Source: Candidatus Saccharimonadia bacterium (GTDB taxonomy: Bacteria > Patescibacteriota > Saccharimonadia > Saccharimonadales > JALRHH01). Taken from it: a stretch of DNA of 64,000 bases. Shown piece after piece: positions 12,103 through 15,971 of this stretch. Numbering within the stretch: the stretch's first letter is position 1; the number at the start of each line of letters is the position of its first letter. The stretch covers positions 256,199-320,198 of the forward strand of contig JALRHH010000002.1 of the NCBI GenBank assembly GCA_023253175.1, read 5' to 3'. A model generated the notes under the pieces. The model saw only the letters and a program-made list of their open reading frames with translations, searched no databases and had not been told where the DNA came from. Made by a program: the position numbers and the translations under genes.

Positions 12103-12960
12103 CTATATATTGTCGAGCGTGAGGGTGGTACAGCGAATGTAGCCACCGCCCTTTACGAGTTCAATAATTTCAGGGGTGATCGTTTTGAGGCCTTTTGCCT
12201 CAATCGCGGCTTTGAGGAGCGGTGCGGTACCACTCATGATGACGGTTTCACCGGTAGAAACGAGGTTACAGGCAAATGCCTTTTTGGCCTCGTGTACTGA
12301 TACTTCAATCTTCTCAATTGGAAGTTCGCGGATGATCGTTTGGCTTTCTTTGGTGAACGCCGCAGGACACCAGGCTATGAGGTCATCCCTTAAGACCGAT
12401 AACGCGAGATCAATGTCGTAGAAAAAGCTATCTGGCCAACCAGAGTCTTTGTTGATAACCCTTTTGCCGTACCAATTACGCTGCGGGATGGTCTGCAGTT
12501 GCACTAATTTATAGCCGAGTGCTTCGGCTGCGAATGTTTGCGCTGCTGCATCACTTCGGTACCCATTGCCGGCCAGTAGGTATTTGCCGCAAGGCAGAGC
12601 ATCGCCTTGGCCGCTGAAATGGAGTCCTTCAGAAGCTTCTATAACTTCCTTGCCAAGATCGGTGAGTACCATTTTTGCATAAGGCTCCTCCCCCTTGCGC
12701 GCATCAGGTAGCCTTGAGACAATTGCCTTGTTACCCCGGACCAAGGCCCAGTTAGCGGTGTATACACCGTCCTGGCAGTCTCGGGGTGGCGTAACGGTAA
12801 TTACTTTCACACCGGCTGTCTCAAGGGCTTCACGAATCGCAGTATGCTCCTGACGAGCTCTTTCCAAATCAATGGTGTCGTTTTTTGACATGTAGGGGTT
12901 AATTGCCTGTTCGGCGTTAAAGTAATCAACTCCGGACATCAGTACAGTTCTATTAATCAT
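12103..12960 (-). CDS. amidinotransferase-superfamily enzyme (DDAH / arginine deiminase-like)
   Basis: C-terminal GGGYIRCTTLTL has the catalytic Cys context of the guanidino-modifying superfamily. Start chosen at MINRTVLMSG (ATG 12960). Confidence 0.6.
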   Translation of the reverse strand: MINRTVLMSGVDYFNAEQAINPYMSKNDTIDLERARQEHTAIREALETAGVKVITVTPPRDCQDGVYTANWALVRGNKAIVSRLPDARKGEEPYAKMVLTDLGKEVIEASEGLHFSGQGDALPCGKYLLAGNGYRSDAAAQTFAAEALGYKLVQLQTIPQRNWYGKRVINKDSGWPDSFFYDIDLALSVLRDDLIAWCPAAFTKESQTIIRELPIEKIEVSVHEAKKAFACNLVSTGETVIMSGTAPLLKAAIEAKGLKTITPEIIELVKGGGYIRCTTLTLDNI

Positions 12961-13024
12961 AAGCCTATTGTACGCGGCTACCGGGTTGTATGTAAAATAT
13001 TGACTAATAGTTTTAAAAGTGGTG

Positions 13025-13052
13025 TTGAAATATTTAATGACAGGAGTATACT
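13025..13052 (+). promoter_or_regulatory. candidate sigma-70 promoter driving the structured RNA / GC-rich small gene
   Basis: TTGAAA, 16 nt spacer, TATACT. Confidence 0.35.
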
Positions 13053-13155
13053 GGCAACATAATTTTGTATACAGCAAAGCTATTTTGCGGACAAAATGAC
13101 AGTGATTTCTTGAGATAAATACATTTCGGAATCATGCACATTGAGATGTAGGTAT

Positions 13156-13206
13156 CCAAAATGGAGACATTGGTGATCAGGCTGATCACTGGTGCTTCCA
13201 TTTTGG
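13156..13206 (+). other. 51-nt two-tier hairpin (H1) in the 5' region of the island
   Basis: CCAAAATGGA/TCCATTTTGG (10 bp) enclosing GTGATCAG/CTGATCAC (8 bp), separated by a symmetric 7x7 internal loop. Confidence 0.6.
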
Positions 13207-13268
13207 TGAAGATTACCATCCTGGAGGATGCAGTACCCCGAGAAAGAATGCCATTTTTCTGCGTTTAA
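13161..13268 (+). CDS. possible 35-aa hydrophobic peptide (METLVIRLITGASILVKITILEDAVPRERMPFFCV)
   Basis: ATG lies inside the 5' arm of H1. The TAA stop overlaps the AAGGAG SD of the next ORF; a weak AGGT SD sits 7 nt upstream. No homology evidence. Confidence 0.2.
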   Translation: METLVIRLITGASILVKITILEDAVPRERMPFFCV

Positions 13269-13281
13269 GGAGAAGATTAGC

Positions 13282-13548
13282 ATGAGCATCGAAGAGCAGC
13301 AGATCGAGTGCTGGCAGCTGCGTGACCAGGACGCCCGTCAGGCCCGCGACAGCGAGACTGAGATGTGCTGGGAGCAGCACAACAAGGCAGCCGCCATGAG
13401 CGACGGTCAGGAGAACATCCTGCAGGTGGTCTCCGGAGACATCGCCATCATGCCCTCGGGTGAGAAGCGGCCGCGCACGAAGCGCAGCTACAGGAAGGGG
13501 CAGCGTCGTCGCCGCCTCGAGGCCCAGTTGCCTCGGCCCGCTGCGTAG
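13282..13548 (+). CDS. GC-rich small protein (88 aa) with Arg/Lys-rich C-terminal tail; foreign composition
   Basis: AAGGAG lies 8 nt upstream of ATG 13282. Hand count 176/267 G+C; only 12 of 88 codons end in A/T. Tail is KRPRTKRSYRKGQRRRRLEAQ. Confidence 0.6.
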   Translation: MSIEEQQIECWQLRDQDARQARDSETEMCWEQHNKAAAMSDGQENILQVVSGDIAIMPSGEKRPRTKRSYRKGQRRRRLEAQLPRPAA

Positions 13549-13571
13549 GCGGCCCCCAGGGGAGGGAAAAA

Positions 13572-13626
13572 GGGCCGGGTCCAAGGTGGATTTATACAGC
13601 TGTCAGCTGCCACCTGGATCCGGCCC
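13572..13626 (+). terminator. GC-rich 17-bp hairpin (H2) downstream of the GC-rich ORF; tail-less terminator or protein/RNA binding site
   Basis: GGGCCGGGTCCAAGGTGG-(20 nt loop with 2x CAGCTG)-CCACCTGGATCCGGCCC. One bulged A and one G-T wobble; followed by a C-run, not a T-run. Confidence 0.5.
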
Positions 13627-13677
13627 GCCCCCCCCATCTTCAACACCGCCTACATCTCAATAACACACTCTATGATG

Positions 13678-13700
13678 CACCCCAGTTAGGGTGTTTTTTT
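13678..13700 (+). terminator. intrinsic terminator
   Basis: CACCC-cagtta-GGGTG followed by TTTTTTT. Confidence 0.7.
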
Positions 13701-13717
13701 ATTTGTGTACATGAATA

Positions 13718-13746
13718 TTGATAAAATACCATGTTTATGCTATAAT
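13718..13746 (+). promoter_or_regulatory. near-consensus sigma-70 promoter of the pseudokinase-kinase operon
   Basis: TTGATA (13718-13723), 17 nt spacer, TATAAT (13741-13746). ATG 13756 lies 9 nt downstream with no SD. Confidence 0.7.
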
Positions 13747-13755
13747 ATAGGTTAT

Positions 13756-14385
13756 ATGTCAGAGATTGTTAATCCAGAACACCGCGAGCCTGATCCACGC
13801 CATCTTCAAATAGAGCCGCATCGTCATCTTATTGACGATAAAGTGTGGAAGCAGACTGGAATTACAGAGTATTTTGATACCACCTCCCAGAAACGCATCA
13901 TGACGTTGCCTCGTGATTCTGAAAGCGCTGCTTTACATGGCCAGCTTGTTGATAAACGCATTTCGGTCTATCCAATGTTTGGCGCTGATAACCAGAGCAT
14001 TTTACTGGGAGTGCCCAATGATTCACGAACTGTACAATCAAGTCTTAGATTTATAGCCAGGGATGTAGTACGTTATAAAGAGATTTTTACTCAAGTAGGT
14101 AATGTGCTCGGCCGCTGCGCGCTATATGGACTTGGCTTGCCGGGTCGAACTATCGAACGCCCTGTATTGGCAAGCGTTGCATTTTCACTCAACACTACAG
14201 AGACTTTTGGTGGTAATGTTCATCTCTTGCCACCGTACTCGTTTGAGCACGCAAAATCAAAAACAGAAGAACTACAGGAATTGCGTCGTGAATTAGTGGC
14301 GTCATCGTATATTTCTTCAGCAGTCGCAAGCGAGTTGATAGCCGCAACGAGCTTAGGATGGGAACATGCCCGAGAACGCTCATGA
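13756..14385 (+). CDS. hypothetical protein; by-eye a degenerate C-lobe-only paralog of the downstream kinase-fold protein (pseudokinase)
   Basis: CALYGLGL...ASVAFSLN...NVHLLPPYSFEHAKSK aligns with NALFHGDLAFRNVAFDQTGKTVIIDPELMISAKES of the next ORF. The His/Asp/Asn/Asp catalytic residues are replaced. Confidence 0.45.
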   Translation: MSEIVNPEHREPDPRHLQIEPHRHLIDDKVWKQTGITEYFDTTSQKRIMTLPRDSESAALHGQLVDKRISVYPMFGADNQSILLGVPNDSRTVQSSLRFIARDVVRYKEIFTQVGNVLGRCALYGLGLPGRTIERPVLASVAFSLNTTETFGGNVHLLPPYSFEHAKSKTEELQELRRELVASSYISSAVASELIAATSLGWEHARERS

Positions 14386-15364
14386 GATTAGCCTTGAAGC
14401 AGTTATAGACCGATTTCAATACGATATTGGTCAATATGGCTCTGCTGAAACGTTTGCCCTCCCTGAAGTTGCTGGTCGTATCAACCACAACATGAAGTAT
14501 GTTCAGATAAATGATAGTTTAGATCAGGGAATGTACCTTGATGAGGGGCTATATCGCAGGGACATGCAGTACGGTTTTTTTGTACAGGCGGGAAATCGTC
14601 TAACCCGGGAAGACTCTCATAATAAAGTATTCTTTGGGAATATGTTACTTTTGCCCGAGGGCTCTGACGATGAAATTCATGAGCAAGTGGCGGTAAAAAG
14701 TAGAGTAAGCAGCGAGACGCACAAACTACTCGGTGAGATGGCGCTGTTCCAGCATCTTGAGAGCTTAGATATTAGAACATACCGGCCAGCGGCTTTACTT
14801 GTTGGGCAAAAGGCCACGCACCTGATGACATACTTCGAAGGTAATGTAGCTACAATGGATACCGTTGACTGGGAAAACATGGAGATTGAAGAAGCTTGGG
14901 TTGAGGTAGATAAGGTAATTGATACGATGATGCAGCTCTATACTAATGCATTATTTCATGGCGATCTTGCATTCAGGAATGTTGCCTTTGATCAGACTGG
15001 TAAAACGGTGATCATCGACCCTGAGCTTATGATCAGTGCCAAGGAAAGCTATGATGAATTACTCGATGCAGGCGTTTTATTTACTCCTAAACAACAGCGG
15101 ATATACGATGGTATTGTACAAAAAATGAGTGGCGAGATGGGTAGTGTCTTTCATTCAATCGATAGGCACATTCTGCCACTGTTCCCGAAGCAAGAACGGC
15201 CAAGAAGTGACGAGGCTCGCCTAAAAATATACAAGAAGCATTTATTCGAGCCATTTAAGTCCAGGGTACGCGATCTCGAAGATCCAATACGCAGCTTCCT
15301 TCTTCGTCTCACTGATGACGTGGTAGCACGTAAGAAGGCGCATGCCAAAGAACAGAAATTATAA
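14366..15364 (+). CDS. protein-kinase-like fold phosphotransferase (APH / choline-kinase / Kdo-RIO-like)
   Basis: Beta3 Lys context QVAVKS; catalytic loop HGDLAFRN; IIDPE metal-binding motif (matches the APH-family HGDLxxxN...IDxE pattern). Overlaps the upstream ORF by 20 nt. Confidence 0.65.
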   Translation: MPENAHEISLEAVIDRFQYDIGQYGSAETFALPEVAGRINHNMKYVQINDSLDQGMYLDEGLYRRDMQYGFFVQAGNRLTREDSHNKVFFGNMLLLPEGSDDEIHEQVAVKSRVSSETHKLLGEMALFQHLESLDIRTYRPAALLVGQKATHLMTYFEGNVATMDTVDWENMEIEEAWVEVDKVIDTMMQLYTNALFHGDLAFRNVAFDQTGKTVIIDPELMISAKESYDELLDAGVLFTPKQQRIYDGIVQKMSGEMGSVFHSIDRHILPLFPKQERPRSDEARLKIYKKHLFEPFKSRVRDLEDPIRSFLLRLTDDVVARKKAHAKEQKL

Positions 15365-15390: not shown

Positions 15391-15406
15391 AATATGCGGT
15401 GGGGGA

Positions 15407-15485
15407 GGGCTTAGCTTGTGTTGTCTGATGAGTGTAAGGTGGAGGCAGGGTGCCTACGACAGGTTACATCATCCAAGCTAAGCCC
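15407..15485. other. 79-nt imperfect hairpin (H3) 3' of the minus-strand GC-rich ORF
   Basis: Perfect 12-bp outer stem GGGCTTAGCTTG/CAAGCTAAGCCC; inner GATGA(G)TGTAA/TTACATCATC; apical AGGCA-ggg-TGCCT. Confidence 0.55.
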
Positions 15486-15565
15486 AGACCGACCGACGAG
15501 GTGCATCTCCTTGGCACTATGCGCATGAGCGCCAATGGAGATGACCCCGCCGCCGGTTGTCCGTG

Positions 15566-15886
15566 TCAGCGCGCTTGGCGCCAACGGATGATCGTCGTGT
15601 CGAACTCCTGACGCAGCTCCTGGTGGAACAGCTTCATGAACTGGTGGCTCCAGTCGAAGCTGACGCACCCGTGAGACGGGATGAGGAACTCGACGATCTT
15701 GGTGGCGCTGGTGAAGCACACATGCCTTCCGTTGAGACCGTTGATGATGTTGGCGATCTTGCGGTGGACCTGCGGCTGTTCAGCGGCGGGAACCATGAGG
15801 AACACCCTCAGATGGTTCTTCTCGAGGAGGGATCGAGTAATTTCGACCCAACCCAGACCTTCGATGTGAATATTCGATGGGGTCAT
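15566..15886 (-). CDS. GC3-rich small protein (106 aa), tentatively receiver(REC)-like fold, apparently truncated; foreign composition
   Basis: GGAAGG SD 6 nt upstream of ATG 15886. Hand count 183/321 G+C; 21 of 106 codons end in A/T, and 10 of those fall in the first 20 codons. RVFLMV...CVSFDW...TTIIRW resembles REC beta1/beta3/beta4. Confidence 0.5.
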   Translation of the reverse strand: MTPSNIHIEGLGWVEITRSLLEKNHLRVFLMVPAAEQPQVHRKIANIINGLNGRHVCFTSATKIVEFLIPSHGCVSFDWSHQFMKLFHQELRQEFDTTIIRWRQAR

Positions 15887-15919
15887 GCTGTGCCTTCCAT
15901 GATGGATACGGACTAGCAA

Positions 15920-15971
15920 AGTCTATCACGTGCTCGGAATCATTGCAATATTTATAATAGGATTGTATAAT
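15920..15971. promoter_or_regulatory. divergent promoter pair sharing a palindromic -35 (TTGCAA)
   Basis: Plus strand: TTGCAA (15943-15948), 17 nt, TATAAT (15966-15971). Minus strand: TTGCAA, 17 nt, TAGACT (15925..15920). Confidence 0.45.

Follow-up and report, generated by a model that had tools for sequence, protein, structure and literature searches.

A small open reading frame (ORF) lies at 13282-13548 on the + strand of a 64,000-nucleotide stretch of DNA from a Candidatus Saccharimonadia bacterium (contig JALRHH010000002.1, positions 256,199 to 320,198; hereafter, the window), and encodes a protein of 88 amino acids (aa), acidic towards the N-terminus and basic towards the C-terminus. 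It was characterised through eight protein variants of its family, the phase of insertions and deletions (indels), the replacements and the GC content at third codon positions (GC3); DNA is available for seven of the variants, including that of the window. The assembled flanks place the element after a divergently transcribed DDAH-like gene and, in locus L001, upstream of groES. Alignment of the orthologous loci revealed conservation of the entire intergenic unit, beyond the ORF alone, and the ORF is predicted to be the coding core of a stand-alone transcription unit of about 640 nt, located roughly at 13059-13701 on the + strand. Altogether, these data point to an undescribed, narrowly distributed panhandle-structured RNA with a translated GC-rich ORF in Saccharimonadales, of the structured-mRNA or dual-function-RNA kind.

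The ORF is preceded by a Shine-Dalgarno (SD) sequence, AAGGAG, at 13267-13272; an earlier note on this DNA had recognised the same SD but gave the spacer as 8 nt, whereas 9 nt separate it from the ATG. Only 12 of the 88 codons end in A or T, as that note had counted, which corresponds to a GC3 of 0.864. The 51 long ORFs of the window have a GC3 of 0.48±0.04 with a maximum of 0.56, so that the small ORF is a compositional outlier, about 8.7 standard deviations above their mean. The strongest GC island of the window (13277-13686, peak 72% GC) covers the ORF together with the hairpin behind it, and only one other plausible GC3-rich small ORF was found in the window, 2 kb downstream. The leader is of normal GC content, unlike the GC-rich core. 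The earlier idea that the gene evolved in a high-GC genome is contradicted by the host genome, which is 48% GC (48.4% in the 64-kb window), and by the GC3 of GroEL, 0.48. This GroEL is 83-85% identical to proteins listed under Candidatus Saccharimonadales at NCBI, and the same small protein is also encoded on a contig of 950 kb.

Both CW-containing repeats reported previously, IECWQL and EMCWEQ, are indeed encoded in the product, along with the segments SIEEQQIECWQLR and AAAMSDGQENILQVVSGDIAIMPSGEK and, at the C-terminus, the arginine-rich tail KRPRTKRSYRKGQRRRRL. A 57-nt in-frame insertion at about 13300-13356 is present only in the copy of the ORF in the window lineage; there are two CW repeats because this insertion partly duplicates the GAG..TGCTGG (E-x-C-W) segment.

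Architecture of the predicted transcription unit

A sigma-70-type promoter, TTGAAA-16 nt-TATACT, was found at 13025-13052 (+ strand, 10 of 12 matches), with a predicted transcription start near 13059. Of five homologues scanned, four have this promoter some 255 nt before the ATG, and L018 has it at -240. At the other end, an intrinsic terminator at 13677-13701 (+ strand), with the arms GCACCCC...GGGTGT followed by a T-run, is conserved in all homologues; a near-consensus separate promoter for the next gene lies after it.

The most prominent predicted feature of the RNA is a two-tier panhandle that would join the leader and the 3' untranslated region (UTR) by an outer helix of 13 bp and an inner helix of 7 bp. 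The 5' strand of the outer helix, ATTGAGATGTAGG (13140-13152), is the exact reverse complement of its 3' strand, CCTACATCTCAAT (13649-13661), 496 nt away. This pairing was recovered by an inverted-repeat search, by alignment, and by independent minimum free energy (MFE) folds of the window and L019 sequences (z-scores of -6.65 and -7.29). L018, L019, and L021 carry an additional T in the 5' strand (GAGATTGTAGG) and, matching it, an additional A in the 3' strand (CCTACAATCTC); in L018, a G-C pair is exchanged for A-U, and the extension of the helix covaries as TA/TA in L002 and CG/CG in L004. The inner helix is formed by UGAAGAU at 13207-13213 and AUCUUCA at 13636-13642 according to the MFE fold and to duplex prediction in all seven homologues, and is replaced in the L019/L021 type by GGAUACAGAG pairing with CUCUUAUCC.

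The leader, of about 225 nt, contains three hairpins on the + strand. Hairpin P1 (13062-13097) appears in both MFE and consensus folds, with little covariation in helices 1-2. Hairpin P2 (13102-13135) comprises 13 pairs, five of them changed on both sides, with 95.6% of cells paired, and hairpin P3 (13156-13206) comprises 21 pairs, again with five changed on both sides and 96.6% paired; its lower stem is invariant, while the apical stem is hypervariable yet compensated. Further downstream, at 13222-13239, lies the motif UGGAGGAUG(U/C)AGUACCCC, which is invariant in the alignment save for a single base each in the window and L019 (helix 7 never varies); a leader string of the element reads TGCTTCCATTTTGGT...TGGAGGA. 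The GGAGG at 13223-13227 can pair with a local CCCC or with the 3' C-run at 13628-13635, both of which are candidate partners. Finally, the SD and the first two bases (AU) of the start codon are sequestered in a hairpin at 13248-13283 (helix 8 of the covariation analysis), in which a U-rich UUUUCU faces AGGAGAA and AUGC pairs with the GCAU of the start region. It comprises 12 pairs, with 94% paired across the alignment, and one compensatory C-G to U-A change.

A long hairpin occupies the 3' UTR at 13559-13635. Its outer pairing joins a G-run (13559-13566) with the C-run (13628-13635), and its main stem has arms at 13572-13589 and 13610-13626 forming 17 bp that include a G.U pair and are interrupted by a single bulged A. 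The 17 bp agree with the earlier description of this hairpin; the stem begins 23 nt, not 24 nt, past the stop codon. An apical mini-stem of CAGCU (13597-13601) and AGCUG (13605-13609) becomes UGGCU/AGCCA in L019. The hairpin is a genuine conserved structure, kept in all variants; eight pairs of its helices 18-20 are changed on both sides, and the 3' region folds with a z-score of -6.1. A C/A-rich stretch separates it from the terminator. The C-run has the G-run at 13559-13566 and the leader GGAGG as alternative partners and may act as a switch.

Over the whole unit, 28 of 144 consensus pairs are changed on both sides, whereas shuffles gave 14.6±2.5 such pairs and none of 500 reached 28; control alignments in which the partner was slid by 1-3 columns retained 1-7. 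The best-supported helices are P2, P3, and the 3' hairpin. In the leader, G.U pairs outnumber A.C mismatches by 53 to 6, as expected for an RNA of the + strand, while no asymmetry was seen in the 3' hairpin (7:6).

Coding potential, conservation and distribution

The SD and ATG are kept in all seven DNA variants, and frame +1 is open, with no stops, in all seven homologues. In a nucleotide-only alignment, each of the nine gap runs within the ORF body has a length divisible by three (3, 3, 57, 39, 12, 9, 21, 3, and 6), compared with 6 of 34 outside it (Fisher P = 9e-6). The mean BLOSUM62 score of replacements is +0.08 in frame +1 versus -1.12 and -0.96 in the other frames. The reading frame is preserved by selection and is probably translated. 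The earlier proposal of a real gene rather than a chance ORF is thereby borne out, in the sense of a conserved, probably translated small gene whose frame is conserved among homologues. An antisense ORF of 123 aa spans 13213-13584. A mostly open antisense frame is expected from a GC3-rich sense frame; it is open in six of the seven homologues and interrupted in L020, and was rejected as a gene, in agreement with its former description as a shadow.

The protein evolves fast, with 47-86% identity among variants and a ratio of nonsynonymous to synonymous divergence (dN/dS) of 0.44-0.70, which was counted against a normal protein gene. What every variant keeps is a charge dipole, with a net charge of -1 to -8 in the N-terminal part and +4 to +10 in the C-terminal part. 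The grand average of hydropathy (GRAVY) ranges from -0.7 to -1.6, the maximum 19-residue Kyte-Doolittle mean across the eight variants is 0.43, and no transmembrane segment was predicted in any of them. An AlphaFold model consists of a helix at residues 3-39, a disordered part, and a helix at residues 67-82, and its predicted local distance difference test score of 69 was judged too poor for a fold search. Searches with the protein and the family profile against Pfam, NCBIfam, PHROGs, and PDB sequences returned no family match, as the failure to recognise a family from the sequence had suggested, and no homologue outside the clade was found among 1.84 billion representative proteins.

The arginine-rich tail is present in the window, as described before, but it does not define the family: a run of RRRR occurs in four of the eight variants and RRR in one more, while the three most distant have single arginines. 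The tail of L018 is KGKQGR, and those of L019 and L021 (…AAVSMAG and …SAVSLAG), which cannot be aligned with the tail encoded in the window, are reached via frame-shifting indels of 5 and 8 nt. Reading of the same nucleotides in another frame was considered for L019 and L021 and rejected, as 11 identical bases out of 17 are too weak a match. For L020 (248-502) and P0010, the gene callers began upstream, at a GTG within the conserved leader motif GTGGAGGATGTAG; because the conserved start is MSIEEQ, the annotated products of 84 and 87 aa are too long.

The divergence of the flanking DDAH-like gene provides a scale for the conservation of the element. Its synonymous divergence (dS) is 2.3-2.7 and its third-position identity 42-50% in every comparison, and neutral sites are therefore saturated. 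Relative to L001 and L002, the element is 84-92% identical in the leader and ORF and 76-84% in the 3' UTR; relative to L018, L019, and L021, it is 61-74% identical. In the neighbouring gene, third-position identity is 58-68% over the first 40 codons and then about 45%; conservation stops at functional boundaries, with no extended recombination tract into the flank. The unevenness of the divergence, with scrambled but compensated apical stems next to invariant blocks, argues for selection and not for recent spread.

Within the ORF, dS is only 0.12-0.46. Much of this low value follows from the bias towards G/C-ending codons, and the use of low dS as proof of structure had to be tempered, since codon bias at a GC3 of 0.86 accounts for much of it. 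For this reason, the site-specific codon excess was measured separately: where two sequences encode the same amino acid, they use the same codon in 75-93% of cases, versus 56-66% expected from family codon usage. The GC3 of the orthologues is 0.73-0.89 in every lineage; next to saturated neutral sites, this means that either the composition is actively maintained or the copies diverged elsewhere. The resulting evolutionary puzzle is that one gene stays at a GC3 near 0.86 while the saturated synonymous sites of its neighbour stay near 0.5, and neither codon adaptation, given the GroEL value, nor folding stability, given the shuffle tests described below, explains it.

The identical protein (P0001) was found on 12 contigs. 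Eight contigs from eight samples were fetched and carry an identical element of 580-680 nt with a single nucleotide polymorphism (SNP) in total, a T to C change at 13593, seen in L008, within the otherwise invariant apical loop of the 3' hairpin. There are seven further protein variants, and the six with DNA are all located at the same place. The family is very narrow as judged from these searches, being confined to a few lineages of Saccharimonadales (Saccharibacteria/TM7) within the candidate phyla radiation (CPR). The element is present in a single copy; nhmmer found no second copy in the window and none in L022-L025. It is carried by L019 and L018, whose DDAH-like proteins are 90.3% and 86% identical to that of the window, and is missing from closer and other relatives considered below. 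Two unrelated versions of the downstream genes exist. This patchy presence and the differing downstream genes indicate that the region from the DDAH-like gene to groES is a variable hot spot.

The earlier note had drawn attention to sites for SbfI (13419-13426), NotI (13467-13474), XhoI (13516-13521), PvuII (13597-13602 and 13604-13609), and BamHI (13616-13621), and had asked whether they reflect a vector or synthetic contaminant. All of these sites lie exactly where it placed them, the two PvuII sites within the apical mini-stem of the 3' hairpin. Six-base palindromes are not enriched relative to dinucleotide shuffles (8 observed versus 6.9±2.6), and eight-base palindromes are mildly enriched (6 versus 1.8±1.35, P=0.013). 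The occurrence of the same element in eight samples, together with its diverged syntenic orthologues, excludes vector contamination and chimerism, and blastn and tblastn searches against plasmids and phages gave no match.

Wider searches for relatives of the RNA were also negative. IMG/VR contained no match to the leader pattern or to the stem of the second element described below. Among the GTDB species representatives, none of 149 peptide-pattern matches was confirmed and the 20-nt leader motif had no match, and a 20-mer from the hairpin loop matched three JGI metagenome sequences, all within unrelated AAA-ATPase (rarA-like) genes (L015-L017). Rfam 15, with its tmRNA, RNase P, SRP, 6S, OLE, GOLLD, ROOL, raiA, and riboswitch families, gave no match at the gathering threshold across the 64 kb; a permissive search of 12900-13900 returned only sub-threshold noise, almost all miRNA-type hairpins, and one over both GC islands only miRNA-like noise and a terminator. 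A tmRNA-like molecule, with an internal ORF ending in AA and a closing helix, was considered and rejected: an SD and AUG are present, there is no tRNA-like domain, and ARAGORN found no tRNA or tmRNA in the entire window. An integron cassette with an attC site, whose imperfect hairpin would lie between RYYYAAC and GTTRRRY cores, was rejected too, as there are no GTT/AAC core sites in or around the hairpin (13549-13661) and the element has its own promoter and leader. Literature searches on non-coding RNAs and small proteins of Saccharibacteria, and on horizontal transfer and GC content, yielded nothing relevant.

Neighbouring genes and a second GC-rich island

The second GC-rich island of the window, at 15397-15920, harbours a further conserved element, some 170-200 nt long. 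Of its two hairpins, the first reads GGGCTTAGCTTG...GGTGGAGGC..GCCTACGACA...CAAGCTAAGCCC and the second is centred on CACTATGCGCATGAG. The same element occurs in L001 (5686-5790), L004 (1675-1771), L019 (2572-2666), L022 (8173-8290), L023 (8300-8400), and L025 (1049-1155), and in L022 it occupies the place where the panhandle element would be. Unrelated GC-rich ORFs of 85-116 aa follow it lineage by lineage, on the opposite strand and converging. It had no Rfam or Pfam match, and blastn detected no similarity between it and the panhandle element. It resembles a hot spot for the insertion of cassettes, or else a 3' element shared by variable small genes.

The DDAH-like gene, whose start and promoter region lies at 12958-12996 on the minus strand, is listed with 324 aa from a TTG start; comparison with its orthologues suggests that the most likely start is the conserved ATG at 12960 (MINRTV..., 285 aa in orthologues). 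Its mRNA may be leaderless, because a TTTACA-18-TACAAT promoter ends 6 nt before this ATG. Downstream of the panhandle element, a protein of 332 aa (14366-15364) is weakly similar to small kinases, among them those of the RIO/Bud32 type (E ~1e-4, below cut-offs). Its gene sits a few kb from tsaD, the Kae1 homologue, and in other lineages it is replaced, along with the preceding gene of 226 aa, by an unrelated gene of about 320 aa.

Possible functions and comparison with known systems

We regard a compact, translationally gated or dual-function RNA as the best reading of the element, with about an even chance of being correct. One could hypothesise that the full-length RNA adopts a closed form, resistant to nucleases and difficult to translate. 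Before the charge-dipolar small protein could be made, the SD hairpin, the panhandle, or both would have to open, with processing, temperature, or a trans-acting factor as candidate triggers. The sequence-level constraint inside the ORF suggests that the molecule probably also acts in a sequence-specific way as RNA, which would make it a dual-function RNA.

Several observations weigh against this reading. The promoter, the terminator, and translation are deduced from sequence and conservation, the triggers named above are candidates, and the covariation statistics are thin because there are only seven distinct, related DNA variants. The element is dispensable, being absent from L022, although the DDAH-like protein of that locus is 92.6% identical to that of the window, and from L023 and L024. 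Variable columns are spread nearly equally over the three codon positions (34, 36, and 41 of 64), which is atypical for a protein under purifying selection, and synonymous changes are not enriched in frame 1, their fraction being 0.18 in all three frames. Taken alone, the ORF is no more stable than its synonymous-codon shuffles (z from -1.1 to +1.2), nor does it gain stability over them in the context of the whole transcript (z from -0.13 to +0.81). Neither the synonymous constraint nor the GC richness is thus explained by a specific structure.

Alternatively, the element could be mainly a trans-acting regulatory RNA in the manner of RNAIII or SgrS, with conserved blocks that bind mRNAs or proteins and a peptide of secondary importance. 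The nucleotide-level conservation across the unit, which includes unpaired blocks and synonymous sites, the fast evolution of the protein (47-86% identity, dN/dS 0.44-0.70), and long-range closing helices like those of the RNAIII architecture would all fit. The strict maintenance of the reading frame, SD, and AUG and the confinement of conservative replacements to frame 1 are harder to reconcile with it, and we consider it unlikely on its own, although it is compatible with the gated or dual-function RNA proposed above and does not exclude it. Somewhat less likely still is the horizontal transfer of a GC-rich small-gene cassette into a variable hot spot, its source being a high-GC donor or a mobile pool, in which case the GC richness and low divergence would reflect origin or exchange, and the structures would be incidental or regulatory leftovers. 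Its patchiness speaks for such a history, since loci with DDAH-like proteins 90.3% (L019) and 86% (L018) identical to that of the window have the element and L022 lacks it at 92.6%; so do the variable gene content between the DDAH-like gene and groES, the locus 2 kb away with unrelated GC-rich small ORFs in different lineages, and the far greater divergence of the element in L019, which by DDAH is as near to the window as L002. However, no donor pool came to light, with no homologue outside the clade in the representative proteins, plasmids, phages, or IMG/VR; the leader of normal GC content is conserved together with the GC-rich core and base-pairs across it; conservation ends at functional boundaries; and saturated apical stems beside invariant blocks, with 28 compensated pairs, are a mark of selection and not of recency. 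At the bottom of the scale is a cloning-vector or synthetic contaminant or an assembly chimera: the cluster of familiar restriction sites is the sole point in its favour, and several of these sites fall within conserved codons or the covarying hairpin. With no enrichment of six-base palindromes, no plasmid or phage match, the identical sequence on eight contigs from eight samples in independent assemblies, and six diverged syntenic orthologues, this explanation is practically negligible.

The remaining explanations concern the peptide. Autoregulation by binding of an arginine-rich motif (ARM) to the hairpin in its own 3' UTR, as in lambda N/boxB or Tat/TAR, would build on the earlier note, which likened the tail to arginine-rich RNA-binding peptides. 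The positive C-terminal part (+4 to +10 in all variants), the predicted helix at residues 67-82, the covariation of the hairpin, which implies function, and its loop, invariant in the four closest variants and carrying the only SNP among the eight contigs, are all in line with this model. Its weak point is that the hairpin is kept even in variants without the arginine run: RRRR occurs in only half of the eight variants, the tail is KGKQGR in L018 and unrelated in L019 and L021, and the hairpin lacks an excess of G.U over A.C (7:6). We find it improbable for the family as a whole, though conceivable in lineages that have RRRR. A chance open frame in an untranslated GC-rich non-coding RNA is slightly more doubtful. 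Given the composition, a frame this long would be open by chance with a probability of 0.10-0.20, and the near-equal variation at the three codon positions, the lack of synonymous enrichment, and the mostly open antisense frame would suit it; indels in phase in nine of nine cases within the ORF versus 6 of 34 outside, an SD and AUG in all variants, conservative replacements in frame 1 only, and the preserved charge dipole would not. A type I toxin-antitoxin (TA) system, in which a structured toxin mRNA is silenced by its folding and by an antisense RNA, is very improbable. A 5'-3' long-distance interaction, SD sequestration, a small ORF, dispensability, and a variable region are all typical of such systems. 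The product, however, is hydrophilic (GRAVY -0.7 to -1.6) without a transmembrane helix, the transcript is two to three times as long as known examples, and a consensus scan of five homologues found no conserved sigma-70-like promoter on the minus strand within the element, which leaves room for weak or non-canonical promoters or a trans-encoded RNA. For lack of a hydrophobic segment in its product, the element does not qualify as a member of the type I TA systems.

A more far-reaching proposal, which we consider highly speculative, is that of a new class of large dual-function RNA of episymbiotic Saccharimonadales, whose core is held at about 65-70% GC by selection and is host-directed. The composition of the core resembles that of the high-GC Actinobacteria on which known Saccharibacteria live. 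If this were true, the RNA or its charge-dipolar product would be adapted to work inside the host cell or on it, and the element, together with the neighbouring hot spot of unrelated GC-rich small genes, would mark a pool of host-directed small effectors. Should the GC-rich small genes of the region be host-related, they would bear on how episymbionts and their high-GC hosts interact; otherwise, the element still adds a new family to the catalogues of RNAs and small proteins. Regulatory RNAs appear to be little documented in CPR bacteria (Patescibacteria), which have tiny genomes and few recognisable regulators, and the gated or dual-function RNA proposed here provides a concrete candidate for post-transcriptional control in Saccharibacteria.

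Among known systems, the hok mRNA of plasmid R1 and the aapA1 mRNA of Helicobacter pylori are similar in being stand-alone small-ORF transcripts with pairing between the 5' UTR and the 3' end and a sequestered SD. In the AapA1 mRNA, the 5'-3' long-distance interaction and SD sequestration result in a stable, translationally inert form that is activated by processing (PMC5416894). The element shares this combination through its 13-bp and 7-bp helices and the hairpin over the SD and AUG. It differs in its hydrophilic product of 64-88 aa without a transmembrane helix, in that no conserved antisense promoter was found in the five homologues scanned, in a transcript of about 640 nt versus 250-400 nt, in the location of the SD outside the long-range helix, in a coding region that is a GC3 outlier, and in having no sequence homology to them. 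Type I toxins are small hydrophobic proteins with a transmembrane helix, usually under 60 aa, a description that the product of the element does not fit.

The ARM pairs (lambda N/boxB, HIV Tat/TAR, and Rev/RRE) likewise combine a basic, probably helical segment with a conserved hairpin in the same transcript. In the present family, the arginine run is not conserved although the hairpin is, and the motif is C-terminal; there is no antitermination context, because a terminator and a new promoter follow the element. Pairing of the 5' and 3' UTRs in the icaR mRNA of Staphylococcus aureus and RNA thermometers of the fourU type offer further comparisons. As in icaR, the C-rich sequence of the 3' UTR is available for pairing with a sequence of the GGAGG type, and as in fourU-type thermometers, a U-rich strand pairs with the SD; the difference is that the C-run here has three possible G-rich partners.

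RNAIII (hld), SgrS/SgrT, and SR1/SR1P are dual-function small RNAs. The element is like RNAIII of S. aureus and other such RNAs in its length of several hundred nucleotides, its many hairpins, the long-range helices joining its ends, its small ORF, and a sequence constraint beyond coding need. A translated small ORF in a structured RNA is indicated here by evolutionary evidence only, and an independent RNA activity is hinted at by synonymous-site conservation beyond codon bias. Unlike these RNAs, the element has no Rfam match, its ORF takes up about 40% of the RNA, and it is restricted to a few lineages of Saccharimonadales. Judged by these comparisons, the element resembles the hok/AapA1 mRNAs or RNAIII in architecture and belongs to neither family.

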